In this document: one piece after another, positions 30,062 to 56,530 of the stretch
Numbering within the stretch: position 1 is the first letter of the stretch
Layout of the letters: the number at the start of each line of letters is the position of its first letter
NCBI GenBank assembly: GCA_026387335.1
Contig: JAPLLX010000001.1
Location: 16,489-80,488, forward strand
Source of the DNA: Candidatus Omnitrophota bacterium
GTDB lineage: Bacteria > Omnitrophota > Gorgyraeia > Gygaellales > Profunditerraquicolaceae
Direction: 5' to 3'
Length of the DNA stretch: 64,000 nt
Program-made: the position numbers and the translations under genes
The notes under the pieces: generated by a model
Database searches by the model: none
The model's input: the letters and a program-made list of their open reading frames with translations, nothing else
Told to the model about the DNA's origin: nothing

Positions 30062-31312
30062 ATGCACGAATTCAAATTTAAAAGAAATAATTTATATTGC
30101 GAAGAACTGAAAGTGCAGGATTTAGCCAAAAAATTCGGCACCCCGCTTTATATCTATAGTTACCAAACTTTACTCGAACATTTTATTAAGCTGGAGCAGG
30201 CCTTTAGGTCGATTCATCCGCTTATATGCTATTCGGTAAAAGCGAATTCTAATTTAGCTGTTCTTAAAGCTTTGGTAAAAAAAGGGGCGGGGCTGGATGT
30301 TGTTTCGGGGGGTGAGTTATTCCGCGGCTTAAAAGCGGGTTGTCCTCCCGGACGAATAGTTTATGCCTCAGTCGGTAAGACTGACTATGAAATAGAAGAA
30401 GCGATTAAATCGGGTATTTTATTTTTTAATGTCGAGTCTTCTTCGGAATTAAAAAATATCCAGCATATTGCCCGCCGCCTGAAAAGACGCGTAAATGTGG
30501 CTTTGCGCATTAATCCTGACGTTGAACCTAAAACGCATAAATATATTACTACGGGAAAACTGACTAATAAATTCGGAATAGATTTTAAAACCGCCAAACG
30601 GATTATTTTGTTAGCCAGGGGTTTTTCGCATGTAAAAATATCCGGGTTGCATATCCATATCGGGTCGCAAATAACTGCCCCTGAGCCGTTTGTGGCAGCT
30701 ATAGCCAAAGTAACAAGATTTATCTCAAGACTAAGGAAAGAGGGGATAATATTAGAATATTTAAATATCGGAGGAGGCTTGGGGATTATTTATGACAAAG
30801 AAACCCCGCAGACCGCGCTAAAATTTGCCGCTAAGATCCTGCCTTTATTAAGAAAGACAGGCCTTAAGATAATCATGGAGCCGGGCAGGTTTATTGTTGG
30901 CAATGCCGGAATATTAGTAACGAAAGTCCTTTATGTTAAAAATACCCCGAAAAAGAAATTTATTATTGTGGACAGCGGTATGAATGATTTGATCCGTCCG
31001 GCATTATACGAGGCGTATCACAATATAGTGGCTTTAAGTAAAATAAATAGAACTGAGAAAGCGGATGTTGTCGGGCCAATATGCGAGAGCGGAGATTTTT
31101 TTGCTAAAGACAGGACTTTGCCTAAAGTGGAAGAGGGAAGTTATCTGGCGGTTATGGGAGCGGGCGCGTACGGTTTCAGTATGTCCAGCAATTATAACTC
31201 TCGGCGCAGGGCCCAAGAGGTAATGGTAATCAAAGATAAAGTATTTGTAATCCGTAAACGGGAAACTTATGAGGATCTAACGCGTAATGAAGTTATCCCC
31301 GCGTTTTTATAG
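30062..31312 (+). CDS. lysA: diaminopimelate decarboxylase
   Basis: YSVKANSNLAVL PLP-Lys region, HIGSQI, EPGR, CESGD. Confidence 0.9.
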   Translation: MHEFKFKRNNLYCEELKVQDLAKKFGTPLYIYSYQTLLEHFIKLEQAFRSIHPLICYSVKANSNLAVLKALVKKGAGLDVVSGGELFRGLKAGCPPGRIVYASVGKTDYEIEEAIKSGILFFNVESSSELKNIQHIARRLKRRVNVALRINPDVEPKTHKYITTGKLTNKFGIDFKTAKRIILLARGFSHVKISGLHIHIGSQITAPEPFVAAIAKVTRFISRLRKEGIILEYLNIGGGLGIIYDKETPQTALKFAAKILPLLRKTGLKIIMEPGRFIVGNAGILVTKVLYVKNTPKKKFIIVDSGMNDLIRPALYEAYHNIVALSKINRTEKADVVGPICESGDFFAKDRTLPKVEEGSYLAVMGAGAYGFSMSSNYNSRRRAQEVMVIKDKVFVIRKRETYEDLTRNEVIPAFL

Positions 31313-31315
31313 AAT

Positions 31316-32122
31316 ATGATTAAAAAAATAGAATTTACTAAAATGGTGGCTTCCGGGAATGATTTTGTAGTCATTAAGTCGGAGCCGGAGTCCGTTTCTT
31401 TAAAGAAACTGGCAAGAGAGATTTGCGACAGGAAATTCGGGGTTGGCGCAGACGGCTTGCTTGTTTTAAGCAGGATTAGTCCGGATACTATCCGTATGCG
31501 GATTTTTAATAGCGACGGTTCAGAGGCTCAGATGTGCGGTAACGGCTCACGCTGCGCCGCGCTTTACACCGGAAAAAAGGATATTAAAATTAAGACCTTG
31601 GCCGGGATTATCATGGCTAAAGTAAACGCGGATAATGTTAAAGTAAGACTTTCTAAGCCTAAAGATTTAAAATTGGGTATTCCCATTAAGGTCAGCGGCA
31701 GGAGCTTAGCGGTTAATTTTATTAATACCGGAGTCCCGCATACGGTAATATTTGTTGAAGGGATAGAGAAGATAAATGTGCAAGAAATCGGTAGAGAAAT
31801 ACGCCGGCATAAAAAATTTCTCCCCGCCGGAACAAACGTTGATTTTGTGGAAATCCTGAGTAAGGATTCCTTAAGGATCCGTACCTATGAAAGAGGGGTT
31901 GAGGATGAAACTCTTGCCTGTGGGACAGGAAGCGTTGCCGCCGCGTTAATTTTTGCTTTAAAGACGCATAGTGTTTTGCCTAAAATCAATATGCATACAA
32001 AAAGCGGAGAAATCCTGAAAGTATATTTTAAAAAGGATGGGCTTAAATTTTCAGAAGCCTGGCTGGAAGGAAAAGCGAAAATAGTTTATAGAGGAGAATA
32101 CCTATGTTTAAAGGCTCGATAG
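31316..32122 (+). CDS. dapF: diaminopimelate epimerase
   Basis: FTKMVASGNDFVVI and catalytic Cys motifs CGNGSRC / ACGTGS. Confidence 0.9.
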   Translation: MIKKIEFTKMVASGNDFVVIKSEPESVSLKKLAREICDRKFGVGADGLLVLSRISPDTIRMRIFNSDGSEAQMCGNGSRCAALYTGKKDIKIKTLAGIIMAKVNADNVKVRLSKPKDLKLGIPIKVSGRSLAVNFINTGVPHTVIFVEGIEKINVQEIGREIRRHKKFLPAGTNVDFVEILSKDSLRIRTYERGVEDETLACGTGSVAAALIFALKTHSVLPKINMHTKSGEILKVYFKKDGLKFSEAWLEGKAKIVYRGEYLCLKAR

Positions 32123-32979
32123 TTGCTATTGTAACGCCATTTAGAAATGGCAAAGTTGATGAAAAGAAACTGCGGGAGCTCATTGATTTTCAGATTAAAA
32201 ACGGTTCCAGAGGGATTGTGCCTTGCGGGACAACCGGGGAGTCGGCTACTTTGTCTTTTGAGGAACATGAACGGGTAATTGAAATTACTATTGAGCAGGT
32301 CAATAAAAGAGTTCCGGTTATCGCCGGGACAGGCTCTAATTCTACGCAAGAGGCTATAATGTTAACTAAACAGGCGGCTAGTTCCGGAGCAGACGCGTCG
32401 TTACAGGTCTCTCCGTATTATAACCGTCCGACCCAAAAGGGCCTGTATGAACATTTTAAGGCCGTCGCGGATTCAGTTAAAATCCCGATCATTCTTTATA
32501 ATATTGCTGGTAGGACCGGGGTTAATATTGAGCCGGAGACAATCGCGAAGCTAGCTAATGATTGCAAAAATATCGTGGCAGTAAAAGAGGCATCGGGAAA
32601 TTTGGAGCAGATGTCGCGGATAAAAGCGCTCTGTCCCCCAAATTTCCAACTTACTTCCGGAGATGACGGACTGACGCTTCCGGTATTAAGTATCGGCGGA
32701 GTGGGGATAATCTCGGTAGTAGCCAATATTGTGCCGGCAGATGTGGCGAATTTAGTCAGCGCGTTTGAAAAAGGGGATATTAAGCAAGCGCAAAGCCTGC
32801 ATTATAAATTACTGCCGTTAGTCAAAGCCATTTTTATTGAAACTAATCCTATTCCGGTTAAGACCGCGTTGGGATTAATGGGTATGTGTGAGCCGGATTT
32901 ACGTCTACCGATGTGCGCGATGTCGGCTGATAATCTGGAGAAACTTAAAAAAGCCTTAAGGGATTACAGGCTTCTCTAA
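32104..32979 (+). CDS. dapA: 4-hydroxy-tetrahydrodipicolinate synthase
   Basis: GSIVAIVTPF, GTTGES, active-site Lys in VAVKEASG. Confidence 0.9.
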   Translation: MFKGSIVAIVTPFRNGKVDEKKLRELIDFQIKNGSRGIVPCGTTGESATLSFEEHERVIEITIEQVNKRVPVIAGTGSNSTQEAIMLTKQAASSGADASLQVSPYYNRPTQKGLYEHFKAVADSVKIPIILYNIAGRTGVNIEPETIAKLANDCKNIVAVKEASGNLEQMSRIKALCPPNFQLTSGDDGLTLPVLSIGGVGIISVVANIVPADVANLVSAFEKGDIKQAQSLHYKLLPLVKAIFIETNPIPVKTALGLMGMCEPDLRLPMCAMSADNLEKLKKALRDYRLL

Positions 32980-32995
32980 AAAAGAGGAGAAAATA

Positions 32996-33706
32996 ATGAT
33001 AAAGTTGGGAGTTGCGGGTGTCTGCGGAAAAATGGGGAGGCGTATTTTTGAGCTAGCCTCATTTGATAAAGATTTTGAACTGGCTCTGGCCCTGGAGAAA
33101 AAAGGGACTCCAGCCATAGGTAAGGATATAGGAAAACTAAAAATATCCTCTACCCAGGACGGGCTGTTTCTTGTTGATGTGCTGGTGGATTTTACCGTGC
33201 CTGAGGCAACTGAAGCGAATCTTGATTATGTCGCCAAATATAAGAAAGCGCTTGTGCTGGGGACAACCGGTTTAAGTGAGGCGCAGATAAAAAAAGTGGA
33301 AGAGGTTTCCGGCGTTGTGCCGGTAGTCTTTACTCCGAATATGGCTATAGGCGTAAATGTATTATTCTCAATCTTACCGGATATAGCTAAAAGGTTAGGT
33401 CCGGATTACAGTATTGAGATAGTGGAGGCGCATCATAAAACCAAAAAAGACGCTCCTTCGGGAACAGCTAAAAAATTAGCCGCCATACTTAATGAAGTTA
33501 GTAAAAAAGCGGTGCCTACGCATTCAGTCCGCTTGGGAGATATTGTGGGTGACCATACGGTTATATTCTGCGGAAATTCCGAGCGCATTGAAATTAAGCA
33601 TCAGGCGCATTCGCGGGATTTATTTGCTTTAGGCGCTTTGAAGGCGGCGAAATGGGTTTTGGGAAAACCCGCCGGACTTTATTCCATGCAAGATGTACTA
33701 AAATAA
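32996..33706 (+). CDS. dapB: 4-hydroxy-tetrahydrodipicolinate reductase
   Basis: KLGVAGVCGKMGRR, EAHHKTKKDAPSGTA signature. Confidence 0.9.
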   Translation: MIKLGVAGVCGKMGRRIFELASFDKDFELALALEKKGTPAIGKDIGKLKISSTQDGLFLVDVLVDFTVPEATEANLDYVAKYKKALVLGTTGLSEAQIKKVEEVSGVVPVVFTPNMAIGVNVLFSILPDIAKRLGPDYSIEIVEAHHKTKKDAPSGTAKKLAAILNEVSKKAVPTHSVRLGDIVGDHTVIFCGNSERIEIKHQAHSRDLFALGALKAAKWVLGKPAGLYSMQDVLK

Positions 33707-33714
33707 GGACAGTT

Positions 33715-34872
33715 ATGTTTAAACTATCTAAAAAATTACAGGCATTACCCGAGTATTTATTTCTGGAAATCGACAAAGCTAAAAGGCAGGCCCGCGCGCA
33801 AGGCCGCGATATTATTGACTTAGGAATTGGTGACCCTGACCAGCCTACGCCTAAACATATAGTGGAAGCATTGTATCAGGCAGCGCTTGAGCCGGCTAAC
33901 CACCGTTACGCGTTAGACCAGGGTATGCCGGTTTTACGCCGTTCAATCGCAGCCTGGTATAAACAAAGGTTTAAAGTCAGTCTTAATCCGGATTCCCAGA
34001 TCCTTCCGTTAATAGGTTCCAAAGAAGGTCTCGCCCATTTTCCTCTCGCCTTCTTAAATCCGGGAGATTACTCTTTAGTCCCGGACCCCTGTTATCCTCC
34101 TTATAAAGGCGGGACAATTTTAGCCGGAGGCTTGCCCTATCTTATGCCGCTCATTGAAAAAAATGCCTTTCTGCCGGATTTAAAGAAAATACCGTTAAGC
34201 GCGCGCAAAAAAGCAAAAATAATCTTTGTTAATTATCCTAATAATCCGACTTCCGCGACCGCGGACAAAAATTTCTATAAAGAACTTATTGATTTTGCGC
34301 ATAAAAATAAAGTTATTATTATCTCGGACCTGGCTTATTCTGAAATGTGCTATGACGGGTATCGTGCGCAAAGCATATTGGAATTTGACGGGGCTCGAGA
34401 AGTCGCGATAGAATTTCATTCGTTATCCAAGACTTATAATATGACCGGTTGGCGCGTAGGCTGGGCCTGCGGAAACGAAAAATTAATCGCGGCTTTAGCC
34501 AAAGTTAAGTCTAATATTGATTCCGGGATCTTCTCGGCGGTGCAGTTGGCCGGGATTGCCGCGCTGAGTGGCCCGCAAGAGCACATTGAACACATGTGCA
34601 CCCTCTACCAAGAGAGGCGGGATGTCCTGATGCATGGTTTAGATTCTTTAGGCTGGCAGCTAAATTGCCCCAAGGCCACATTTTATGTCTGGATTAAAGT
34701 CCCTAAAGGAAAAGATTCTATAAAGTTCTCGGGTAGGTTATTAGAGAAGGCCAACATCGTCGTTACTCCCGGGGTTGGATTTGGTAAATTTGGTGAAGGC
34801 TACATTCGGATGGCGCTTACCGTGAACAAAGAACGGATAAGAGAAGCGCTGGATAGGTTAAAACACATTTAA
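33715..34872 (+). CDS. dapL: LL-diaminopimelate aminotransferase (DapL-type) / class I aminotransferase
   Basis: LPEYLFLEID N-terminal motif typical of DapL. PLP Lys in SLSKTYNMTGWR. ATG 33715 preferred over the upstream in-frame extension, since RBS AAGGA sits just before it and the dapB stop is at 33706. Confidence 0.75.
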   Translation: MFKLSKKLQALPEYLFLEIDKAKRQARAQGRDIIDLGIGDPDQPTPKHIVEALYQAALEPANHRYALDQGMPVLRRSIAAWYKQRFKVSLNPDSQILPLIGSKEGLAHFPLAFLNPGDYSLVPDPCYPPYKGGTILAGGLPYLMPLIEKNAFLPDLKKIPLSARKKAKIIFVNYPNNPTSATADKNFYKELIDFAHKNKVIIISDLAYSEMCYDGYRAQSILEFDGAREVAIEFHSLSKTYNMTGWRVGWACGNEKLIAALAKVKSNIDSGIFSAVQLAGIAALSGPQEHIEHMCTLYQERRDVLMHGLDSLGWQLNCPKATFYVWIKVPKGKDSIKFSGRLLEKANIVVTPGVGFGKFGEGYIRMALTVNKERIREALDRLKHI

Positions 34873-34920
34873 TAAAACGTCATTGCGAAGCGCCGTAGGC
34901 GCTGAAGCAATCCCTGAATT

Positions 34921-35322
34921 ATGGTAACTTGCTATCTAGGAGTTGGCTCAAACTTAGGCAATAGACGCAAGAACATCAAGGAAGCCGTTAGGAAAATAAA
35001 TTTGTTGAAAAACACAAGAGTATTAAAACAATCCCGGTTAATCCTCACAAATCCCGTCGGAGGCCCTGGCGGGCAGCCTAAATTTTTAAACGCGGCTTTT
35101 AAGATCAAGACCGGCCTTACGCCTTTTGGTCTTCTAAAAGCGCTGAAGAATATTGAAAAACAATTAGGCCGCCTAACTTCCGTTAGAAACGGTCCGCGCA
35201 AAATAGATTTGGATATCTTACTTTACGGGGATAAGATTATAGACCGCAAAGGGCTGATTATCCCTCATCCGCGCCTGTTCACCAGAGATTTTGTGATCAG
35301 GCCGTTAATAGAGGTAATATGA
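34921..35322 (+). CDS. folK: 2-amino-4-hydroxy-6-hydroxymethyldihydropteridine pyrophosphokinase
   Basis: YLGVGSNLGNR...KIDLDILLYGD..IPHPR: HPPK motifs. Confidence 0.8.
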   Translation: MVTCYLGVGSNLGNRRKNIKEAVRKINLLKNTRVLKQSRLILTNPVGGPGGQPKFLNAAFKIKTGLTPFGLLKALKNIEKQLGRLTSVRNGPRKIDLDILLYGDKIIDRKGLIIPHPRLFTRDFVIRPLIEVI

Positions 35323-36203
35323 AGATAATAAAAGCGCCGGATAAGTTGTTTAAAGATCTTAAAAAGTTTAAAATTTCCGGCAAGTCCATTGGTTTTGTCC
35401 CGACTATGGGCGCTTTACATGCCGGGCATTTAAGTTTAATTGCCCAAGCGCGCAAAGAGAATAAAATCGTGGTTGTAAGCATATTCGTAAACCCCAAGCA
35501 ATTCGGCCCTCAAGAAGACTTAAAGGTTTATCCCCGTCCGCTAAAAAAAGACCTGTTACTCTGTAAAAAAGAAAAAGTTGATTATGTTTTCCTTCCCGGA
35601 GCAAATGCTCTGTACGCCGAGGGTTTTTCCACTTATGTAGATGTTGAGGGTTTAAGCGCAGTGCTTTGTGGAAAGTCCCGCCCGGGACATTTTCGCGGCG
35701 TGGCCACGATAGTAACGAAGTTATTTAACCTTGTCCAACCGGATGTTGCTTATTTCGGGCAGAAAGACGCGCAACAGGCAAGCATCATCAAAAAAATGAC
35801 AAAAGACTTAAACTTTCCGGTTAAAATAAAAATTATGCCTACTCTGCGTGAAAAAGACGGTTTGGCCATGAGTTCAAGGAATGCGTATCTGGGGAAACAG
35901 GAGAGGAAAGATGCCTTGGTGTTATCCCGCGCGTTAAACTTAGCTAAAGTTTTAATCAGGGGAGGGGCTAAGGATACGGTTAGGATTATTAGCCGGATGA
36001 AACAGTTGATCAGCAAGAATAAAAACGCAAAGCTTGATTATATCGCTATTGTTGATTCAGAAAACCTAAAACCTCTTAAAATAATTTCCGGTAATTATTT
36101 GATTGCTTTAGCGCTAAATATTAAAAAGGTGCGTTTAATAGATAATTTTCAGGGACGGTTCTCAACTCAAAGCAAAAGTGTCCCCAATATGGGGACACTT
36201 TAA
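35319..36203 (+). CDS. panC: pantoate--beta-alanine ligase; the last ~17 codons are read from the 78-bp repeat
   Basis: FVPTMGALHAGHLSLI HxGH motif. 294 aa ORF ends inside repeat copy 3. Confidence 0.85.
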   Translation: MKIIKAPDKLFKDLKKFKISGKSIGFVPTMGALHAGHLSLIAQARKENKIVVVSIFVNPKQFGPQEDLKVYPRPLKKDLLLCKKEKVDYVFLPGANALYAEGFSTYVDVEGLSAVLCGKSRPGHFRGVATIVTKLFNLVQPDVAYFGQKDAQQASIIKKMTKDLNFPVKIKIMPTLREKDGLAMSSRNAYLGKQERKDALVLSRALNLAKVLIRGGAKDTVRIISRMKQLISKNKNAKLDYIAIVDSENLKPLKIISGNYLIALALNIKKVRLIDNFQGRFSTQSKSVPNMGTL

Positions 36204-36227
36204 GATTGGCTTGAGAACCGTCCCTAA
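36151..36227 (+). repeat. 78-bp nested-palindrome repeat element, copy 3 (overlaps panC 3' end)
   Basis: AGGGACGGTTCTCAACTCAAAGCAAAAGTGTCCCCAATATGGGGACACTTTAAGATTGGCTTGAGAACCGTCCCTAA. Inner 11-bp stem is perfect here (AAAGTGTCCCC/GGGGACACTTT). Confidence 0.75.
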
Positions 36228-36233
36228 ATAGAT

Positions 36234-37052
36234 ATGGATAAACTAAAAATCGGAATTGTCGGCTGCGGGGCGATAGGAAGTTCCTTGGCTAAGGTAATTG
36301 TTAAGGAGTTTTCTAAAGAAGCCAAGCTTGGCGGGCTTTATGACCTGGATAAGAAGAAGACTAAAGATTTATCTAAAAAATTATCCGGCTCTTCTTTAGC
36401 AATGGATAATCTTAAACAGCTGATTAACAAATCAGAGTTAGTGGTTGAAGCTGCTTCGGCAAAAGTATCCTGGGATATAGCTAAATATGCGTTAGCCAGC
36501 GGTAAAGATATTATGATTATGAGCGTGGGCGGGGTAGCCAACCGTCTTAAGCAGCTGACCGCGTTAGCTAAAAAGAATGGCGGTCGGGTTTATATACCCA
36601 GCGGCGCTCTCTGCGGGATTGACGCTGTAAAAGCTGCCAGCGTGGGGAAGATAAAAAAAGTTACCCTTACTACTACTAAGCACCCGTTATCTTTTAAGGG
36701 AGTCAAGTTTGTCGAGGATAAAAGAATAAAGCTATCCGGGATAAAGAAAGATACGCTCTTATTCTCAGGCACGGCCCGCGAGGCAGTCAAGTTTTTCCCT
36801 CAAAATATCAATGTTGCCGCGGTGTTAGGCCTGGCCGGCGTAGGCGTAAATAATACTTATGTCAGGATCATTGCTTCGCCGAAAGCCACCAAGAATATAC
36901 ATGAAGTAAGGGTAGAAGCTGAAGCCGGAAATATCTCTACTCGCACTGAGAATATTTTACATCCGGATAACCCTAAGACTAGCTTTCTGGCGGTCTTATC
37001 AGCGATTGCAACTTTAAAGCAGATTTTGCAGCCGGTCAAAATTGGAACTTAA
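36234..37052 (+). CDS. nadX: L-aspartate dehydrogenase (NadX family)
   Basis: KIGIVGCGAIGS, PSGALCGIDAV, FPQNINVAAVLG, NIHEV, HPDNPKTSF match NadX blocks known from Thermotoga-type enzymes. Confidence 0.7.
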   Translation: MDKLKIGIVGCGAIGSSLAKVIVKEFSKEAKLGGLYDLDKKKTKDLSKKLSGSSLAMDNLKQLINKSELVVEAASAKVSWDIAKYALASGKDIMIMSVGGVANRLKQLTALAKKNGGRVYIPSGALCGIDAVKAASVGKIKKVTLTTTKHPLSFKGVKFVEDKRIKLSGIKKDTLLFSGTAREAVKFFPQNINVAAVLGLAGVGVNNTYVRIIASPKATKNIHEVRVEAEAGNISTRTENILHPDNPKTSFLAVLSAIATLKQILQPVKIGT

Positions 37053-37103
37053 ATAAATATGTTGGATACATAATTTATAAAAAGAAGGGGGGTGAATCAG
37101 AAA

Positions 37104-37343
37104 ATGGCAGACAAAGTAATGAAAGTAGGAGTAAAGAGGGCGAAAGGTTATCTCTATTATATTGACAAACAGGGTGATGTCTCTTGCGCTAAGATGGCCA
37201 GAGGCTCTAAAAAGGGAGGTAGCCCCAAGAAGGTAGCGAAATGCGGTATCAAAAGAAAAGTAGGCTACCTTTATTTCTTGGATAAGAAGGGTGATGTTTC
37301 CTGCGCCAAGATGAAAAGAGGCGGGAAGAAGAAAAAGAGATAA
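37104..37343 (+). CDS. small (80 aa) highly basic protein made of two tandem ~35-aa repeats (KxGxKRxxGYLYxxDKxGDVSCAKMxRGxKK); function unknown
   Basis: ATG 37104 preceded by GAAGGGGGG RBS. Internal repeat visible at the protein level. Followed by a strong terminator. Confidence 0.45.
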   Translation: MADKVMKVGVKRAKGYLYYIDKQGDVSCAKMARGSKKGGSPKKVAKCGIKRKVGYLYFLDKKGDVSCAKMKRGGKKKKR

Positions 37344-37355
37344 TATGCAGTCAAA

Positions 37356-37412
37356 AAAGAAGCCCCTGTAAGTTATAGTCTTATCTAAACATTTACAGGG
37401 GCTTCTTTTTTT
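37356..37412 (+). terminator. rho-independent terminator (16-bp perfect stem, 21-nt loop, T8 run)
   Basis: aaagaagcccctgtaa / ttacaggggcttcttt, then tttttttg. Confidence 0.6.
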
Positions 37413-37428
37413 GTTATAATCTAATCCT

Positions 37429-38190
37429 ATGTTAGAAGGAAAAAAGATCATAGTGGTAATGCCGGCTTATAATGCCGAACACACCTTAGAGCAGACTTAC
37501 CTGGATATTCCCCGGAGCCTGGTTGATGAAATATTAGTCATCGATGACCATAGCCGGGATAAGACCGTGGAAGTCTGCCGTAAGTTAGGCCTGCAGGTAT
37601 TTGTGCATAAGAAAAATAAGGGCTATGGCGCCAACCAAAAAACTTGTTATAAAGAAGCGTTAAGCAGGGGGGCGGATATAGTAATTATGCTCCATCCTGA
37701 CTACCAATACCCGCCTAAGTTAATCAACGCTATGGCTGCCTTGGTCGGCTCAGGGATGTTTGATATTGTCTTAGGCTCAAGGATTTTAGGCGGTTTTGCC
37801 TTAAAGGGCGGCATGCCCAGGTATAAATATATAGCTAACCGTTTGCTTACTTTTTTCCAGAATATAATCTTAGGCCAGAAACTCTCCGAATATCATACCG
37901 GCTATAGGGCGTTTTCCAAAGAGGTCTTACTTAAACTGCCGTTATTGGAGAATTCGGATGATTTTGTTTTTGATAATCAAATCCTGGCGCAGGCAGTACA
38001 CTTTGGGTTTCGTATAGGCGAAATAACCGCGCCTTCGCGCTATACCCGGGAATCATCGTCTATATCGTTAAAGAGGAGTATCGTCTACGGCTTTAGCGTG
38101 ATTGGGACAACCGGGGCATTTTTAGCGGAAAAGTTAAAACTAGCTAAATTTAAAATATTTAGTCCCCATGGCCACAAAATCGACTTATAA
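37429..38190 (+). CDS. family 2 glycosyltransferase (polyprenyl-phosphate sugar synthase, DPM1/ArnC-like)
   Basis: IIVVMPAYNAE...IDDHSRDKT...DxD-like and QxxRW-region features of GT2. 253 aa. Confidence 0.8.
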   Translation: MLEGKKIIVVMPAYNAEHTLEQTYLDIPRSLVDEILVIDDHSRDKTVEVCRKLGLQVFVHKKNKGYGANQKTCYKEALSRGADIVIMLHPDYQYPPKLINAMAALVGSGMFDIVLGSRILGGFALKGGMPRYKYIANRLLTFFQNIILGQKLSEYHTGYRAFSKEVLLKLPLLENSDDFVFDNQILAQAVHFGFRIGEITAPSRYTRESSSISLKRSIVYGFSVIGTTGAFLAEKLKLAKFKIFSPHGHKIDL

Positions 38191-39367
38191 ATTAATTTTT
38201 TTCTTAGTCCTTGTTTTAGCGGTCACCTGTATTTCGGGGAGCCTGAAAAATGTGCAATTCGCTTCCGGGGCGGATGAGGGGTATTATTTTCAGTATGCCT
38301 CTTATATAGGGCAGAACGGTCTTCAGGGGTTCGCGGGTCTTTTTAAGGAATATACCCAAAATCAGCAGCATTGGCTTTTTCCTAACCCCTTAAGGATAGG
38401 TTTTATTATTTTATCCAGTCTCTGGCTTAAGGCCTTCGGGTACTCCTTTATAAATTTAGCCTACCTTTCTTTATTTTGTTATCTTCTTTTCTTAGGCGTA
38501 TCGTATTATTTCTCCAGGAAATATTTAGGCGAAAATCTAGCTTTGTTATTTGTGATCCTATTGGCCTTTTCTCCGCTTCAAATGGCCATGGCCAGGCGCG
38601 CGCTGATAGAGAGCGCCGTGATTTTATTTTTAAGTCTAGCGGTATGGTTATTCTGGGATTTCCTAAAATCCAGAAGCAGGTTAAAATTCGCGCTTTTTAT
38701 TGCCGCCTATTCCTTAAGCATTTTAATTAAAGAGACCAGCGTATTATTGACTCTTGTTTTTTTATCTTTTCTTATCGTGGATAAACTTGTCTGTAAAAAG
38801 GAATTCAACTTCAAGGAATTCGCCGCCATCTTATTTCTACCGTTTATTTGCGTAGGCTTGGTTTATCTGGTTTTAGGTTGCCTGCCTTATATGCCTAGCG
38901 CTATAAAAATAATCTTAAATTCGCCTCAGGCTAATACCTACGCCCTTCTTTTTGGCTCCGGGCCCTGGTATCGCTACTTAATAGATTATGCGCTGCTTTC
39001 TCCCTGGGTGGTTATTTTAACTATTAGCTTTATCTTTTGTTATTTTGTAAACAAAGAAACCGATGATTTGCCGCTATATTTTATAATTGTCTTCCTGGTT
39101 AATTTTATCTTGTTTGATATTTTCACCAAGAATCTGCGTTACGTGATTATTTTAGATATACCCATGCGTTTATTCTCGGTCCTTATGCTGCAGAAAATCG
39201 CCCGGAGGATTACTTGGCGTTACGCTATCCCGTTAGCCTGTATGTTAGTAATCGGGATCGCGCTATCCGATTATTTTAATTTTCGTCATTTATTTGTCCA
39301 AGTTGGTATCTATGACCCGGTAAGTTTCCTCTTGCTCCAAGCCAAACACATCATTCCGCATAATTAG
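38168..39367 (+). CDS. polytopic membrane GT-C-type glycosyltransferase (PMT_2 / ArnT-like)
   Basis: About 11 TM helices. DE motif (GADEGYY) in first extracytoplasmic loop, as in PMT/ArnT family. Overlaps GT2 gene end. Confidence 0.5.
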   Translation: MATKSTYKLIFFLVLVLAVTCISGSLKNVQFASGADEGYYFQYASYIGQNGLQGFAGLFKEYTQNQQHWLFPNPLRIGFIILSSLWLKAFGYSFINLAYLSLFCYLLFLGVSYYFSRKYLGENLALLFVILLAFSPLQMAMARRALIESAVILFLSLAVWLFWDFLKSRSRLKFALFIAAYSLSILIKETSVLLTLVFLSFLIVDKLVCKKEFNFKEFAAILFLPFICVGLVYLVLGCLPYMPSAIKIILNSPQANTYALLFGSGPWYRYLIDYALLSPWVVILTISFIFCYFVNKETDDLPLYFIIVFLVNFILFDIFTKNLRYVIILDIPMRLFSVLMLQKIARRITWRYAIPLACMLVIGIALSDYFNFRHLFVQVGIYDPVSFLLLQAKHIIPHN

Positions 39368-39371
39368 AAAA

Positions 39372-40793
39372 ATGCACAGAAAATTTATAATTTTATTATT
39401 GCTAGCGGTGCTTTTGATTTATTCCAGCTCCCTGCGTAACGGTTTTGTTTTAGACGACCAGGTTTTAATTGTGGAGAACCCCTTGATTAAATCCGGGGAG
39501 GCTAAAGCAATTTTTAGTTCCAGTATTTACGATTTGCCTAAAACCTACAGGCCCATTCAGCAGCTCAGCTATTCTTTAGATTATAAAATATGGGGGCTTA
39601 ATCCGTTCGGTTTTCATTTAAGCAATATCATCCTGCATATTTTAAACAGCGTTTTAGTTTATTTTATTATTTGTTTAATAGCGACTATTCCCCTGGCCCA
39701 AGCAGCCAGCCTGATGTTCGCGGTCCATCCGGTTAATTCCTCGGTTGTCGCCTATATAGGAGGGAGGGCGGATAGCTTAGCGGCTTTATGCATGCTTTTA
39801 AGTATCCTGTTTTTCAGAAGATTCACCCTGCCAAGTTCTAAAAAGAATTATATTTTAAGTTTATTGTTTGCGTGGCTGGCGCTTTTATGCCGCGAAAGTT
39901 CCCTGATCCTTCCTTTGTTGTTATTCCTAGTTTTATCTATTAACCCTTCGGGCCTTAAGAGGTTTAAATATATTCTTCCTTTTTTGGCGCTGGATTTAGC
40001 GTATATCATTTTAAGGGTAAAAGTATTTGGAGCTCAGGCATTCTGGTTGCCCTTTAGCGGACTGCCCCTGTTCTTTAACGCGCTGAATTTTCTTTATATA
40101 ATCTTAAAATATTTAAATATTTTGATTCTACCGTTAAACCTGCATATGCTCAGGACAACCCCTTTTATAATAAGTTTATTAGATCCTCGAGTTTTATTTA
40201 CTTTTCTGATCCTTACTTTACTTGGTTTCTTTTTGTTTAAGGAAAGGAAAAATAAGCTAGTCCTTTTTGGGGCGGCTTGGTTTTTTTGCGGGCTTATCCC
40301 TGTTTTCTTTCTTTTATCCGCTTACCCCTGGCTTAAAGCGGCGCTGCTAGCGGAAAGCTGGTTGTATTTACCCTGCGTAGGGGTATTTCTTCTGGTCGCG
40401 CTTATCATGAAAAAGTTATCCCGCGTAGGAAAGTTTTTGTTTATAATAGTTGTTATTATATTTTCATTATTGACTTATCAGGCCAACGACTATTGGAAAG
40501 ATAATCTCAGCGTTTACCGGAATATATTGAAGTATCTGCCCCAAGAGAATCCCGTGCGCAAAAATTTAATCCGGGAATATTTACGCCTCGGGATGTATGC
40601 TGAAGCAGCGACGGAATTAAAAAAATTCAGCCAAAGCTATCCGGAAAGCAGCGAGCGTTTTGTATTAGAGGGTGATTATTATTTTGCCAAGGGGGAACTG
40701 GCGCAAGCCCGGAATAGTTATACCGAGGCTTTGCTAATTAACAAATATGACCCCCAAGCCCTGGAGAAATTAAGAATATTACAAGAGCGATAA
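39372..40793 (+). CDS. TMTC-like membrane glycosyltransferase (DUF1736 domain) with C-terminal TPR repeats
   Basis: N-terminal FVLDDQVLIVENP...YRPIQQLSYSLDYKIWGLNPFGFHLSNIILH is the hallmark DUF1736/PMT-like block. TPR repeats in the last ~100 aa. Confidence 0.6.
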   Translation: MHRKFIILLLLAVLLIYSSSLRNGFVLDDQVLIVENPLIKSGEAKAIFSSSIYDLPKTYRPIQQLSYSLDYKIWGLNPFGFHLSNIILHILNSVLVYFIICLIATIPLAQAASLMFAVHPVNSSVVAYIGGRADSLAALCMLLSILFFRRFTLPSSKKNYILSLLFAWLALLCRESSLILPLLLFLVLSINPSGLKRFKYILPFLALDLAYIILRVKVFGAQAFWLPFSGLPLFFNALNFLYIILKYLNILILPLNLHMLRTTPFIISLLDPRVLFTFLILTLLGFFLFKERKNKLVLFGAAWFFCGLIPVFFLLSAYPWLKAALLAESWLYLPCVGVFLLVALIMKKLSRVGKFLFIIVVIIFSLLTYQANDYWKDNLSVYRNILKYLPQENPVRKNLIREYLRLGMYAEAATELKKFSQSYPESSERFVLEGDYYFAKGELAQARNSYTEALLINKYDPQALEKLRILQER

Positions 40794-40795
40794 AA

Positions 40796-43582
40796 ATGCA
40801 GAATGAATTTATGATTATCCGCGGAGCCAAAGAGCACAACCTTAAGAATATAAGCCTTAAGCTTCCCCGCAATAAACTTATAGTGGTCACCGGTTTATCC
40901 GGTTCAGGCAAATCCAGCCTCGCCTTTGATACTATTTACGCCGAGGGCCAGCGCAGGTTTATGGAGAGCCTTTCCAGTTATGCCCGCCAGTTCCTGGAGC
41001 AACTGCAGAAACCGGATGTAGAATATATATCCGGGCTTTCTCCTTCGATCGCTATTGAGCAGAGAAAAGCGGGAAGCAACCCCCGTTCTACTGTGGCCAC
41101 CCAGACAGAGATCTACGATTATTTCCGGCTTTTGTTTGCCCGCGTCGGTAAAATATTTTGTTATCGCTGCGGCGCTCAGATAGAAAGGCAAAGCGCGCAG
41201 GAGATTGTTGAAAGAATAATGGCGCTTCCCCAAGGCACGGATATTCAGATACTGGCGCCCTTGGTCCGGGGTAGAAAAGGGGAGTATAAAGATATATTTA
41301 GCGGGATTCAAAAGTCCGGGTTTGCGCGGGTGCGCCTGGATGGCAAAATTTATGAGTTGCCCCTTAAGGTTGAATTAGCCAAATATAAAACCCATAATAT
41401 AGAAGTTGTGGTGGACAGGCTGACCATTAAAGACGGGCTGAAAAACCGGCTTACCGATTCAGTGGAAACAGCGCTAAAGGCTGGTAAGGGCATTGTGATT
41501 ATAAGCGCTAAGGAAGATATGGTTTTTAGCGAGCAATACGCCTGTTCAAAATGCGGGGTAAATTACGCGGAGGTAGAGCCGCGCGTTTTTTCTTTTAATT
41601 CGCCTTATGGGGCCTGCGCTGAGTGTAATGGCCTGGGGACCAAGATTAAATTTAATCTGGATTTGGTTATTCCCGATAAAAGTAAATCCATCAACGCGGG
41701 AGCCATTGCTCCCTGGAAAAGAGGAGGCCGGGGCTACATCCTTTATTACCGTTGGCTCATCCGGGAATTAGCCGCCAAGCGGCGTTTTAATCTGGATACC
41801 CCGTTCAATAAATTATCTAAAGAAAATCAGCAGGCGATACTTTATGGCTCAGAGGAATTTATAGGTAATAAGCCATTTGAGGGAGTGATCCCGCATCTGG
41901 AAAGGTTATTCCGCGAATCAGATAGCGATTATCTGAAAGAAGAGATTTCCAAATTTATGTCTAGTTCAGCCTGTCCTTTGTGTAAAGGAGCCCGGCTTAA
42001 GAAAGAGAGCCTGGCGGTTAGGATTAGCGGCAGGAACATCTGGGAGATTAGTTCGATGTCCATTAAAGAAGCGCGTAATTTCTTTACCGGCCTTAAACTA
42101 AACGCTAAGGAAAAGCTGATCGCCCGGCAGGTTTTAAAAGAGATAACCCAAAAGCTGAAATTCTGTATTGATGTCGGGTTAGACTATTTGACCTTGGATA
42201 GAAAAAGCGCCACCCTTTCCGGGGGCGAGGCACAGAGGATCCGCCTGGCTACTCAGGTTGGCTCAGGCCTAGTCGGCGTATTATATATATTGGATGAGCC
42301 CAGCATTGGTTTACACCAGCGGGATAACGCTAAGTTGCTGGCTACCCTTAAATCATTAAGGGATTTAGGCAATACCCTGCTGGTAGTCGAGCATGACGAG
42401 GCGACTATACTCAACGCGGATTATATTGTGGATTTGGGCCCCGGGGCAGGCAGGCATGGCGGAGAGGTAGTTTTCTCGGGGACAAAAGAGGAGCTCTTAA
42501 AGGATGAGCGTTCTTTGACCGCTAAATATCTAAGGCGGGAATTGAAAATAGATTTACCCAAGGCCAGGAGAAGCTGGCAGAGCAGAAAAGTTTTGGAGAT
42601 AAAAGGGGCAGCTGAACATAATCTTAAAAATATCAATGTTAAATTCCCTTTAGGCACTTTTATCGGAGTCACCGGTGTATCGGGTTCAGGAAAATCTACA
42701 CTTATTGATGAAACATTGTACCGCGCGCTGACGCAAAAGCTTTACCAGTCCAAAGAAAAGCCCGGGCTTTTTAAAAAAATTACAGGAGCGGAGTTTATTG
42801 ACAAGGTTATTGTGGTGGACCAGTCGCCAATCGGCAGGACCCCCCGCTCAAACCCGGCTACCTACACGGGTGTTTTTAGCCATATACGGGATATATTCGC
42901 GCGTCTTCCGGAGTCGCGCGTCCGGGGATTTAAACCCGGAAGATTTTCTTTTAATGTTAAGGGAGGCCGCTGCGAGGCTTGTAGGGGTGACGGGATAAAG
43001 AAGATCGAGATGCATTTTCTTCCTGATGTCTATGTGAAATGCGATATTTGTAAAGGTTTAAGGTTTAATGAGGCGACTTTAGCCGTGAAATATAAAGGTA
43101 AATCTATCGCCCAGGTTTTGGAGATGACTATAGAAGAAGCCCGGGAATTATTCAGTAATATTCCAAAAATAAAGAATACGCTGGCTTATCTATTTGATGT
43201 CGGGTTAGGCTATATTCAGCTTGGGCAATCCGCGACCACCTTATCCGGCGGAGAGGCGCAGAGGATTAAGCTTTCCAGCGAATTAAGCCGGCGCTCAACC
43301 GGAAACACGCTTTATATGCTGGATGAACCGACTACGGGTCTGCATTTTGCCGATGTAGATAAACTAATCAACGTATTGCAAAGGTTGGTAGATAAGGGCA
43401 ATACCGTGATTGTAATCGAGCATAATTTAGAGGTGATCAAGAGTGTTGATTATATTATTGATCTGGGCCCGGAAGGCGGAGACAAGGGAGGCCAGCTTTT
43501 GGCAGCCACCAGCCCCGATGAGCTTATTAAGAACCAAAGATCCTACACGGCGCAATCCTTAAGAAAGGTGTTGCTAGATTGA
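40796..43582 (+). CDS. uvrA: excinuclease ABC subunit A
   Basis: Two ABC ATPase modules (GLSGSGKSSLAF, GVSGSGKSTL), LSGGEAQR signatures, zinc-finger Cys clusters. 928 aa. Confidence 0.95.
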   Translation: MQNEFMIIRGAKEHNLKNISLKLPRNKLIVVTGLSGSGKSSLAFDTIYAEGQRRFMESLSSYARQFLEQLQKPDVEYISGLSPSIAIEQRKAGSNPRSTVATQTEIYDYFRLLFARVGKIFCYRCGAQIERQSAQEIVERIMALPQGTDIQILAPLVRGRKGEYKDIFSGIQKSGFARVRLDGKIYELPLKVELAKYKTHNIEVVVDRLTIKDGLKNRLTDSVETALKAGKGIVIISAKEDMVFSEQYACSKCGVNYAEVEPRVFSFNSPYGACAECNGLGTKIKFNLDLVIPDKSKSINAGAIAPWKRGGRGYILYYRWLIRELAAKRRFNLDTPFNKLSKENQQAILYGSEEFIGNKPFEGVIPHLERLFRESDSDYLKEEISKFMSSSACPLCKGARLKKESLAVRISGRNIWEISSMSIKEARNFFTGLKLNAKEKLIARQVLKEITQKLKFCIDVGLDYLTLDRKSATLSGGEAQRIRLATQVGSGLVGVLYILDEPSIGLHQRDNAKLLATLKSLRDLGNTLLVVEHDEATILNADYIVDLGPGAGRHGGEVVFSGTKEELLKDERSLTAKYLRRELKIDLPKARRSWQSRKVLEIKGAAEHNLKNINVKFPLGTFIGVTGVSGSGKSTLIDETLYRALTQKLYQSKEKPGLFKKITGAEFIDKVIVVDQSPIGRTPRSNPATYTGVFSHIRDIFARLPESRVRGFKPGRFSFNVKGGRCEACRGDGIKKIEMHFLPDVYVKCDICKGLRFNEATLAVKYKGKSIAQVLEMTIEEARELFSNIPKIKNTLAYLFDVGLGYIQLGQSATTLSGGEAQRIKLSSELSRRSTGNTLYMLDEPTTGLHFADVDKLINVLQRLVDKGNTVIVIEHNLEVIKSVDYIIDLGPEGGDKGGQLLAATSPDELIKNQRSYTAQSLRKVLLD

Positions 43583-46065
43583 AGATGAGAATGACTCGGA
43601 TAATTTTAGTCTTTCTGTTGGCCTGGGCTCCTTTAACCCAGGTGTTTCCTGACGATATTTCGTCAGCTGCCTCTAAGCCTAAAGAAGAAGAGACGCTTTT
43701 TATGGCTAAAAAGGCCCTGGAAGATGGTTTTTATGAGGTCAGCCTCGGACTTTTAGAGCGCTTTCTGAATAATTACCCGGATTCTCCTTCGGTTATAGAA
43801 GCAAATTTATTAGTTGGCGAATGCTACTTTCATCAGAATAAGTTTATGGATGCCCTGCTCAAGTTTGAGATGCTTTTAAAAGACTCCCGTTCAAAAAATA
43901 TCAGAGACGCTCTCTATTATTGGATTGCCGAAGTCAATTTTAAAGGTAATAATTTTAATCAGGCTATTCTGAATTATAAGAAGATTATCCGGGAGTTTCC
44001 GGCGTCTTCCTATGTGCCTGTTGCTTATTATTCTTTGGGTTGGTGTTTATTCCAGGAACAGAAATTTAAAAGCGCGTTGGAATATTTTAGGGCTTTAGCA
44101 GAAAAATACCCTAAGGAGCCTCAGAGCAAGGACGCCTTGTTTAAGATTATAGAGTGCCTGTACAGCTTAAAGGATTACACCGGTTTAAAAAATAGGATAA
44201 GCCCCTCTATAGCGGCTTTAGCAAAAGACCCCCTGCGCCTGGCCTACCTTTATTTCTATTTAGGCGAAGCCAACTATTATCTGGGTAACTTTGAAGAAGC
44301 GCTCGCCGCGTATGCTAAAGTTTTAGGGCTTAATCCGGATGAAAAAATGCAGGCTTTATGCAAACTGGATTTAGCCTGGAGCTACCTGAAATTAAAACGC
44401 TATAAAGAGGCTGAAGATGTTTTCTGGAGTTTAAAGCAGGAGGATTTGGAGAAGCGCAGCCGGGATATTCTATTGTTAGGTAAAGCCCTGCTTTTTATGG
44501 AGACTAACCGGATAAATGAGGCTATAAAATTATACGAAGAATTATTAGCGCTAACTAATGACCCTTTAATTTCCGCTCAGGGTAGTATCGGCAGGGCGGA
44601 TGCCCTCTATAATTTGGCGGATTACTCGCTTGCTTCCGGGGCCTATAAAGACGCGTTAGCCAAAATAAATCTTAAAGATATGCCTGCTCAAGCGGTTGAC
44701 AAATTGCGTTATAACTTAGGATGGTCTTTATTCAAACAGGGAGATACTAAAGGGGCGATTAAAGAATTTCAAAAGGTGGTTGATTCGAGCGCCGATACTA
44801 CGCTTAAATTGAGCGCTCTTTGTCAGATAGGAGACGCCTATCAGGAAGGCGCGGATTTTAAGGGATCCGAAGAAGCGTATAGTTTATTATTAAAGGAATA
44901 CCCGGGTTCTGCTTATAGCGATTACGCCCTCTATCAACTAGGGGCGGTATTTTTAAAAGATTCCCAAACCGATCAAGCTATTTTAAACCTTGCTAATTTA
45001 GTAAAGAGTTTTCCTGAGTCGCAATTTTTTGATGATGCTGTCTATACCCTGGGGTTGGCTTATTTTAACGCGCAGGATTATAATTCCGCTAAAAATACCC
45101 TCAAAAAATTCTTGCTTGAACTAAAGGATAGCGGTTTAAAACCCAAGGCGCTTTATCTATTGGGTAATTGCTATTATAATTTAGGGGATTATTCTTCGGC
45201 AATACAAACTTTTAAGGAGGTTACTAAGCTTTCCGGATCACAGGTACAGCTATCCCAGAAAGCCGAATATGGGGTTGCGGATTCTCTTTATCAGGCGGGG
45301 GAAGAAAAAGAGGCCTTGGCTAGGTTTAAGGCCCTGCGTTCAAAATATCCGGATTCTGCTTTCACTCCCGAGATCATTTGGTGGCTGGGCAGTTTTTATT
45401 ATCAACACGCTGAGCCGGATCTGGCAGCCAGGTATTTTTCCTCGCTTATCCGGGATTTTTCCGGTAGTTATCTGTTAGCGGATGCCTATTACGCGCTGGG
45501 TTTGGTTTTCGCCGAGGAGTCCAAGAATAAAGAGGCTTTGGAGAGTTTTCAGAAAGCCCTGGATTTAAATAAACCGGAGATTTTGCCTAAAGCCTCTTTA
45601 GCCATAGCGGACATATATACGCTTGAAGGTAAATTTGATTTAGCCTTGGATTTATATAAAGATGTGGCTAGGAATTATCCCAATTTAAGCGACTCTATTT
45701 CTTTAAAAATAGCGGAAGGTTTAGCCAAAAAAGGCGATTACAATGCTGCCTTGGATTACTACCGTAATGGCTTAAAAGGCGTAGCTCTAAAAGACGCCCA
45801 AAAATTGCATTTTAAAGTGGCTGAGATCCAGGAGGAGAGGGGTAATATTGATGACGCGATAAAAGAATATCTTGAGGCGGTTAATTCTGCCCAGCAGGAT
45901 AATGTTTTAACGGCGGAAGCGTTTTTTAGATTAGGACAGATTTATGAAGATAGGGATAACTCTCCAGAGGCCCTGAGCATATATAAAAAGATATTGCAGA
46001 TGAATATAGCGGAATCCGGGAGCGCGCAGGAAAGGATAAATCGGATTGAAGCAGCGGCAAAATAA
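43579..46065 (+). CDS. secreted tetratricopeptide-repeat protein (YbgF/Tol-Pal-like TPR arrays)
   Basis: Signal peptide, then repeated TPR-like motifs (YxLGxxYY.., A...Y) throughout 828 aa. Confidence 0.7.
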   Translation: MKMRMTRIILVFLLAWAPLTQVFPDDISSAASKPKEEETLFMAKKALEDGFYEVSLGLLERFLNNYPDSPSVIEANLLVGECYFHQNKFMDALLKFEMLLKDSRSKNIRDALYYWIAEVNFKGNNFNQAILNYKKIIREFPASSYVPVAYYSLGWCLFQEQKFKSALEYFRALAEKYPKEPQSKDALFKIIECLYSLKDYTGLKNRISPSIAALAKDPLRLAYLYFYLGEANYYLGNFEEALAAYAKVLGLNPDEKMQALCKLDLAWSYLKLKRYKEAEDVFWSLKQEDLEKRSRDILLLGKALLFMETNRINEAIKLYEELLALTNDPLISAQGSIGRADALYNLADYSLASGAYKDALAKINLKDMPAQAVDKLRYNLGWSLFKQGDTKGAIKEFQKVVDSSADTTLKLSALCQIGDAYQEGADFKGSEEAYSLLLKEYPGSAYSDYALYQLGAVFLKDSQTDQAILNLANLVKSFPESQFFDDAVYTLGLAYFNAQDYNSAKNTLKKFLLELKDSGLKPKALYLLGNCYYNLGDYSSAIQTFKEVTKLSGSQVQLSQKAEYGVADSLYQAGEEKEALARFKALRSKYPDSAFTPEIIWWLGSFYYQHAEPDLAARYFSSLIRDFSGSYLLADAYYALGLVFAEESKNKEALESFQKALDLNKPEILPKASLAIADIYTLEGKFDLALDLYKDVARNYPNLSDSISLKIAEGLAKKGDYNAALDYYRNGLKGVALKDAQKLHFKVAEIQEERGNIDDAIKEYLEAVNSAQQDNVLTAEAFFRLGQIYEDRDNSPEALSIYKKILQMNIAESGSAQERINRIEAAAK

Positions 46066-56454: not shown

Positions 56455-56530
56455 GGGGCTGTAGCTCAGCTGGGAGAGCGCCTCGTTCGCAACGAGGAGG
56501 CCAGGAGTTCGATCCTCCTCAGCTCCACCA
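56455..56530 (+). tRNA. tRNA-Ala (anticodon CGC)
   Basis: GGGGCTGTAGCTCAGCTGGGAGAGCGCCTCGTTCGCAACGAGGAGGCCAGGAGTTCGATCCTCCTCAGCTCCACCA. Cloverleaf with G3:U70 alanine identity pair, anticodon loop TTCGCAA, encoded CCA. Confidence 0.9.

Follow-up and report, generated by a model that had tools for sequence, protein, structure and literature searches.

In a stretch of 64,000 nucleotides from a Candidatus Omnitrophota bacterium (contig JAPLLX010000001.1; this whole stretch is referred to as the window), the open reading frame (ORF) 37104-37343 is a real gene, which is under purifying selection stronger than that on its neighbours. It encodes a small, lysine-rich protein, MADKVMKVGVKRAKGYLYYIDKQGDVSCAKMARGSKKGGSPKKVAKCGIKRKVGYLYFLDKKGDVSCAKMKRGGKKKKR, made up of two homologous 39-residue repeats, and it belongs to a large family whose members are called hypothetical throughout and for which there is no Pfam or NCBIfam model. 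Most likely, the product is a small cytoplasmic, strongly basic, all-beta protein, which binds nucleic acid, most probably double-stranded DNA, without sequence specificity and acts as an architectural (nucleoid-associated) protein; in this reading we place about as much belief as doubt. So extreme a positive charge speaks for a partner that is polyanionic, and a role in the nucleoid is supported circumstantially by the histone H1-like tails and HNH fusions among relatives of the protein, as well as by DNA replication and repair genes neighbouring the small gene in four lineages.

Gene, repeats and predicted fold

Comparing the window gene with 37 orthologues, we observed 288, 172 and 1192 differences at codon positions 1, 2 and 3, respectively; 968 codon changes were synonymous and 361 non-synonymous. 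The excess at the third position, found in the plus-strand frame, fixes both the reading frame and the strand and thereby disposes of a 145-amino-acid (aa) antisense ORF. Suspicion that the ORF might be spurious, or that this longer overlapping ORF on the minus strand (37014-37451) might be the true gene, could be raised by the shortness of the ORF, its richness in lysine and its low-complexity end; with the third-position bias, more than 7,000 homologous clusters, a Shine-Dalgarno site and a terminator conserved on the plus strand and a confident structure prediction all standing against it, the chance of this being so is practically negligible. Across loci the small protein is 66-96% identical, as compared with 32-87% for the neighbouring enzymes there. 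In loci with the same gene order, seven upstream genes (dapF, dapA, dapB, the aminotransferase gene, folK, panC and the aspartate dehydrogenase gene) served as comparators, and the small protein surpasses all seven in conservation in every compared locus except L046; in L007, for example, it is 96% identical, versus 59-87% for the seven enzymes.

The tandem arrangement, already described in a first-pass annotation made by a model from the sequence alone, is unambiguous: both repeat strings quoted there are exact substrings of the protein, and self-comparison yields a single sharp peak at offset 39 with 24 of 40 residues identical (at most 8 at the other offsets between 30 and 49), a value reached by none of 20,000 composition-preserving shuffles. 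When family-wide profiles of the two repeats are compared by hhalign, they match with a probability of 99.8% (E = 1.9e-28). At the DNA level, the repeats share 72 of 120 positions (60%), and 13 of the 24 identical residues are encoded by different codons, from which it follows that the duplication is old and has been maintained at the protein level. An old duplication kept under selection, as proposed in that annotation, is thus borne out by the codon divergence, the profile alignment and the third-position bias. The length given there, 80 aa, has to be corrected to 79. The protein contains 21 Lys and 5 Arg residues, 5 Asp and no Glu, giving a net charge of +21 and an isoelectric point of 10.3, in agreement with its earlier description as very basic; Trp is absent. 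Neither a hydrophobic core nor a signal peptide is present at the N-terminus, MADKVMKVGVKRAKG, and no hydrophobic segment occurs in the protein.

AlphaFold2, run with a diverse alignment, returned a model with a predicted local distance difference test (pLDDT) score of 89.6 and a predicted TM-score of 0.72, all five models lying between 89.0 and 89.6 in pLDDT. The model contains six strands, three per repeat, and a shallower alignment gives the same strands. Each repeat is thus predicted to form a three-stranded beta-meander, and both repeats are predicted to pack into one confident six-strand domain. The first-pass annotation had likened the aromatic-Asp-Lys-Gly-Asp core to small beta-hairpin repeats binding carbohydrate or nucleic acid. 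The hairpin is retained in the AlphaFold2 prediction; carbohydrate binding is disfavoured by the missing signal peptide and by matches to choline-binding repeats, which stay below threshold.

Among 37 close homologues, many of the invariant residues lie in predicted loops and are Lys, Arg or Gly (the basic ones being K7, K11, R12, K22, R33, K36, K37, K43, K46, R51, K61 and K71), and the Tyr/Phe strand (Tyr-x-Tyr-aromatic) is invariant as well. Selection therefore acts on specific basic residues, beyond overall composition. Within the linker between the repeats P41 and K43 are invariant in these homologues and S40 and K42 at least 90% conserved. SPKK motifs are tied to the minor groove of DNA; this motif is not retained in the wider family, where KPEKV or NAEKV is found instead. 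The Cys residue in "SCAKM" is typical of Omnitrophota, and in most other lineages Arg occupies this place in both repeats. Cys28 and Cys67, which hold equivalent repeat positions, are near-invariant in Omnitrophota, mixed cases occurring in a few genomes (alignments A1 and A2); the Cys-codon ranges listed for the window are 37183-37188, 37240-37245 and 37300-37305. As Cys and Arg are exchanged in parallel in both repeats, the two sites may act jointly, or the repeats may undergo concerted evolution. We rejected a zinc ribbon, since each repeat has a single Cys, in place of which most of the family carries Arg.

The family and its remote resemblances

A first search for homologues yielded 1,451 proteins. 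Those ranking in the top 120 are 74-87 residues long, 82-96% identical and labelled "hypothetical protein" or unnamed; the named organisms among these 120 are mostly Candidatus Omnitrophota metagenome-assembled genomes (MAGs). When a profile of close homologues was run against 1.84 billion cluster representatives, 972 clusters (50% identity) were found at E <= 0.001 and 279 at E <= 1e-10, and a profile of diverse members retrieved 7,066 clusters at 90% identity among 8,000 candidates scored. Scanning one genome per GTDB species gave at least 571 confirmed loci. The lineages named among the GTDB matches listed are Omnitrophota, Elusimicrobiota and Endomicrobia, Myxococcota and "delta proteobacterium" MAGs, a Nitrospirae MAG, a Babeliaceae MAG and several Candidatus Woesearchaeota archaea; a Thermoplasmatota MAG is found among the 90%-identity cluster matches. 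Many genomes designated "uncultured Planctomycetales/Planctomycetia" (ENA third-party annotation assemblies) show the Omnitrophota-type gene order and near-identical proteins, and their taxonomic labels are probably imprecise. All named family matches come from MAGs, none from a cultured organism. The family consensus is MAEKVAKVGIKREKGYLYFIDKQGDVSRAKMARGGKKGGKPEKVAKVGIKREKGYLYFIDKDGDVSRAKMARGRKK, and bacterial and archaeal members are about 65% identical to the window protein. Searched with this consensus by tblastn, GenBank phages and PLSDB plasmids gave no match, and relatives are present on only 6 of 2.9 million IMG/VR contigs; an origin from a mobile element or phage was rejected on these grounds. 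A second copy was not found in the window, where the next-best tblastn match has E = 0.012 over 23 residues. Conservation hence extends well beyond the source genome, and the homology searches proposed as a check in the first-pass annotation did not assign the protein to any well-characterised family.

That no known family could be assigned, as had been stated there, holds for Pfam, NCBIfam and PDB alike, none of which gave an accepted match. Scans of the window protein against Pfam-A and NCBIfam yielded zero families at E <= 10, and PHROGs a single weak match of unknown function (phrog_9154, E = 0.009). Scattered sub-threshold matches only were obtained when 56 diverse members were compared with Pfam: DUF5050 was matched by 9 of them (best E 0.0059; scores of 11-14 bits where tabulated, the cut-off being 27), the WW domain by 3 (E >= 0.053; the window protein itself has no such match at E <= 10) and Choline_bind_2, weakly and below threshold, by 3. 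Precomputed Pfam columns are blank for all members except two, which match PF27482 (Beta-prop_YycP) faintly. Against PDB, the single sequence remained at chance level (cyclic 2,3-diphosphoglycerate synthetase, E = 0.65); with the family profile, the LRP6 YWTD propellers gave E = 0.0075 over the full sequence, though none of their individual segments was significant. A literature search covering the family motifs, PF27482 and nucleoid proteins of Omnitrophota found nothing on the family.

These sub-threshold matches appear to reflect a generic motif, in which an aromatic strand is followed by an Asp-x-x-Gly turn and a further strand. Possibly the repeat is very remotely related to propeller blades, which would not imply membership of any such family; with all scores below the curated thresholds, the link would be very remote or convergent, if there is one at all. 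From the six-bladed propellers (YWTD / LDL-receptor class B, DUF5050, Beta-prop_YycP) the window protein differs in having only two repeats, with three predicted strands each, in being cytoplasmic and in being extremely basic. The WW domain resembles the repeat in its unit of about 35 residues, its three-stranded antiparallel sheet and the pattern G-x-x-Y-Y-x-(N/D)-x-x-(T/G)-x-x-S, but its signature (two Trp and a Pro) is missing. Choline- or cell-wall-binding repeats share the aromatic-rich hairpin with a Gly-Asp turn, whereas their period is about 20 residues, in many copies and behind a signal peptide, as compared with 39 residues, two copies and no signal peptide here.

Family members with 1, 2, 3, 4, 6 or 8 repeats exist, the standalone form of 75-85 aa being predominant. 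Large multi-repeat proteins with 4-8 copies include P0121 (886 aa), which has an N-terminal signal or membrane region and a large non-repeat part, P0123 (354 aa) and P0207 (468 aa), in which repeats alternate with zinc ribbons and GAF and prokaryotic RING domains stand at the end. Single-repeat forms are P0256 (58 aa) and a 43-aa protein (L091, 5001-5132) on a 65-kb viral contig from IMG/VR; one single-repeat form resembles a recombinant of repeats 1 and 2 of an Omnitrophota gene. A single repeat may thus be viable alone, perhaps as a dimer. P0173, P0188 and P0204 have in common a C-terminal domain of about 90 residues ending in KFVxLxxPxxNxRxVNxxPKKY(Q/C), for which there is no Pfam match.

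Both the recurrent weak blade similarity (LRP6, DUF5050, Beta-prop_YycP) and the existence of members with 3, 4, 6 and 8 repeats and of the single-repeat viral protein would suit a protein that is a fragment of two propeller-like blades, closing into a ring by homo-oligomerisation and serving as a scaffold or ligand binder instead of binding nucleic acid. Such an arrangement seems improbable to us, since three strands and not four are predicted per repeat, a Gly/Lys loop forms the spacer between the repeats, the monomer alone gives a compact model of high confidence, the linkers of multi-repeat relatives are long and variable, so that their repeats resemble beads on a string, and the charge favours a polyanionic partner.

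The locus and its neighbourhood

The coordinates of the gene, its signals and the parts of its product are collected in Table 1. An in-frame GTG start upstream, at 37092, was dismissed because it lies inside the Shine-Dalgarno site and because homologues begin with MA(D/E/Q)K. The strong ribosome-binding site noted in the first-pass annotation is confirmed by this Shine-Dalgarno site and by its equivalents (GGAGGTGA or GGGGGTGA upstream of the ATG) in most of 83 related loci; in several of those outside Omnitrophota, it is weaker or shorter. Likewise, the terminator was rightly called strong (-31.9 kcal/mol, z = -7.7, matched by none of 200 shuffles), though its stem is not the 16 bp then given: the hairpin comprises 21 pairs when A-U pairs are counted, and its GC-rich core spans 13 bp. 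With a loop of more than 8 nt, it escaped a simple consensus terminator scan for that reason alone. Downstream of the gene, most bacterial loci carry a GC-rich hairpin and four of six archaeal loci have T-runs; some Elusimicrobia loci show a near-consensus promoter, TTGACA-17/18-TAGAAT, about 50 nt upstream of it. The long Shine-Dalgarno site and the terminator, each present in most loci, and these promoters would be signs that the gene is expressed efficiently. The best sigma-70-like match of the region (TTTACA-17-TATAAT with a TG extension, 11/12; 37392-37420, plus strand) overlaps with the terminator's 3' arm, and transcription from it would serve the glycosyltransferase gene downstream. 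Rfam and tRNA scans gave no RNA gene at the locus, the sole one detected in the window being tRNA-Ala (CGC) at 56455-56530 on the plus strand. Nearly all ORFs of at least 150 aa in the window (1-64000) lie on the plus strand, a very strong strand bias over 64 kb; each of the five such ORFs on the minus strand overlaps plus-strand ORFs.

Table 1. Coordinates of the basic-protein gene, its signals, the parts of its product and uvrA in the window
Feature	Position	Strand	Basis or remark
Coding sequence of the basic protein	37104-37343	+	ATG start, TAA stop at 37341-37343, 79 aa
Shine-Dalgarno site GAAGGGGGGTGA	37084-37095	+	read from the sequence; ends 8 nt before the ATG
Repeat 1, residues 4-37, KVMKVGVKRAKGYLYYIDKQGDVSCAKMARGSKK	37113-37214	+	predicted strands 3-6, 16-20, 26-30 (AlphaFold2)
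S-P-K-K in the Gly/Lys-rich linker, residues 40-43	37221-37232	+	homologue alignment
Repeat 2, residues 43-76, KVAKCGIKRKVGYLYFLDKKGDVSCAKMKRGGKK	37230-37331	+	predicted strands 42-45, 55-59, 65-69 (AlphaFold2)
Basic C-terminal tail GGKKKKR, residues 73-79	37320-37340	+	pLDDT falls to about 64
Intrinsic-terminator-like hairpin	37353-37411	+	37353-37373 pairs with 37391-37411; U-run within and behind the 3' arm
uvrA	40796-43582		in the window

In Omnitrophota, the gene order is dapF-dapA-dapB-aminotransferase-folK-panC-aspartate dehydrogenase, the small gene, variable membrane or glycosyltransferase genes, uvrA and a gene for a TPR protein, and it is kept over the whole identity range; the window gene begins 51 nt past the aspartate dehydrogenase gene. 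From lysA/dapF to the large TPR protein (window 30062-46065; loci L001-L086), the order is kept also where the enzymes are only 40-60% identical. In 41 loci uvrA adjoins the small gene or follows it after a few genes, being directly adjacent in many. The interval between the two in the window (37429-40793) holds genes for GT2-like, PMT_2/GT39-like and TPR membrane proteins, and in other genomes DUF2079, radical-SAM or methyltransferase genes, or nothing; it looks like a hotspot of cell-envelope gene turnover.

Outside Omnitrophota, the neighbours are different ones, though genes related to DNA recur. SSB and DnaB are encoded near the small gene in Elusimicrobia loci, and a protein with a DnaA ATPase domain in L041 and L043. 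In Elusimicrobia and Endomicrobia (L053, 5721-5939, as well as L057, L059, L086, L043 and L078), a protein of about 75-100 aa with HTH_17, an excisionase-type helix-turn-helix, is encoded immediately upstream on the same strand. Woesearchaeota loci contain genes for a Mre11-like phosphoesterase, HerA, a DHH/DHHA1 protein, OapB and OapC nearby. For four archaeal loci (L048, L052, L069, L083; Woesearchaeota and related MAGs), the genes for the origin-associated proteins OapB and OapC, a small GTPase, HerA, the Mre11-like phosphoesterase and the DHH/DHHA1 protein were found within a few kb, which suggests that the archaeal copies lie near the replication origin.

Possible binding partners and mode of action

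Of 150 cluster representatives among the relatives, at least 13 have a tail of 20 or more residues rich in Lys, Ala and Arg, as do the products of some of the 83 GTDB loci; such histone-H1-like tails, exemplified by KKAVKKVVKKAVKKVVKK, are 20-75 residues long. The window protein itself ends in GGKKKKR and is without a long K/A-rich tail of the H1/Hc1 type (at least 20 residues). In P0201 two repeats are followed by an HNH endonuclease (Pfam HNH, 1.3e-13), and P0178 has an HNH-like region.

A basic two-repeat domain could also bind rRNA or structured RNA, the protein then being an accessory ribosomal protein or an RNA chaperone. In its small size, strong basicity and extreme conservation, and in having a strong Shine-Dalgarno site and a terminator of its own, it resembles many small ribosomal proteins, and exposed alternating aromatics on a beta-strand are common in RNA or single-stranded DNA binders. 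In two Elusimicrobia loci (L059 and L072, the latter with DnaB also nearby), the gene lies near that for SSB, a region which often also holds rpsF, rpsR and rplI. No ribosomal-protein model in Pfam or NCBIfam was matched, however, and the neighbours in the window (dap genes, folK, panC, aspartate dehydrogenase, glycosyltransferase, uvrA) include no ribosomal-protein operon. The identity of about 65% between bacterial and Woesearchaeota members points to recent transfer between domains, which would be unusual for components of the ribosome, and the HNH fusions and H1-like tails favour DNA over RNA. We therefore regard an RNA-binding or ribosome-associated factor as rather unlikely, and a paralogue of a ribosomal protein, raised in the first-pass annotation as an outcome of homology searching, has become less likely too. 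Of the candidate functions named in that annotation, the first, a nucleoid-associated protein, is the one we favour.

Several observations weigh against a DNA-architectural protein and should be set out plainly. Neither by homology nor by fold could the protein be matched to a known DNA-binding protein: HU/IHF, the histone fold, Alba, H-NS, Fis and MC1 are absent from the Pfam, NCBIfam and PDB sequence and profile matches, and a five-stranded SH3-like barrel of the Sul7d or Cren7 type was not detected by structure comparison. Within the family, P0153 combines repeats with a transmembrane segment and an OmpA domain, there are multi-pass membrane fusions (in P0214, P0219 and P0231 the repeats come after a multi-pass region at the N-terminus), and fusions to GAF and to HEAT repeats occur, none of these pointing to DNA. 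No sigma-70-like promoter is recognisable in the 200 nt upstream of the window gene, which, as in other Omnitrophota loci, stands 38-62 nt behind a biosynthetic gene cluster; with the gene so close behind that cluster and no promoter of its own recognised, high expression is no more than a possibility. Housekeeping genes of an ordinary kind (AspRS, ClpB, PBP1A, FolD, RpiB) make up many of the remaining neighbours, and evidence from the neighbourhood amounts to guilt by association, the loci of one lineage not being independent.

The membrane-protein fusions (P0153, P0214, P0219, P0231 and also P0133, which has C-terminal hydrophobic segments), together with the membrane glycosyltransferase-like proteins encoded downstream in the window, might instead indicate that a different polyanion is bound on the cytoplasmic side, for instance polyphosphate or anionic lipids of the membrane, the protein acting perhaps as a membrane-proximal adaptor. 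We consider this very improbable: the predominant standalone form is without a membrane anchor, and the downstream membrane genes differ between genomes while the small gene is constant and separated from them by its terminator. Membrane-tethered DNA-binding domains are also known, so that the fusions do not discriminate.

If the protein does act on DNA as an architectural protein, the equivalence of its repeats would provide two like surfaces, basic and aromatic, facing the phosphate backbone and the grooves, and one molecule could therefore touch two adjacent sites or two duplexes, by which DNA could be bent, bridged or coated. Additional electrostatic contacts would come from the Gly/Lys linker (SPKK in this lineage) and the KKKKR tail, and the long K/A tails of relatives would act as tails do in histone H1-type proteins. 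The closest analogy for such a mode of action may be Sul7d (Sso7d/Sac7d) and Cren7 of Crenarchaeota, which are likewise lysine-rich, all-beta proteins of about 7-9 kDa without a cofactor and bind double-stranded DNA independently of sequence through the face of a beta-sheet. With histone H1 and the chlamydial Hc1, the window protein shares the SPKK linker and the KKKKR tail, and its relatives share the K/A/R tails; H1 and Hc1, however, have no folded two-repeat core, whereas in this family the core is conserved and the tail, reduced to about 5 residues in the window protein, is optional. By likely action, Sul7d/Cren7 and the H1/Hc1 tails thus seem closest, and by sequence pattern the propeller blades and WW domains.

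Small basic nucleoid proteins are a known functional class; this family and its two-repeat fold are undescribed in the libraries and papers searched. More tentatively, and with doubt prevailing, we propose that the window protein is the founding example of an undescribed chromatin (nucleoid) family with a new, two-blade-like fold of 39-residue repeats, a major DNA organiser in Omnitrophota, which is shared with Elusimicrobiota, some Myxococcota and DPANN archaea (Woesearchaeota), probably by horizontal transfer; all these lineages are known almost only from metagenomes. Should this be true, a new structural class would be added to the few prokaryotic chromatin proteins. To our knowledge, there is almost no experimental knowledge of DNA packaging in Omnitrophota and related ultra-small or host-dependent lineages, and the protein would then provide a first handle on it there. 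The family spans the boundary between bacteria and archaea and is more conserved here than core biosynthetic enzymes; with 79 residues and a confident predicted fold, the protein is cheap to synthesise and test. Whatever its function, the repeat, a 39-residue unit faintly resembling a propeller blade and occurring in variable copy number, is relevant to the evolution of proteins.

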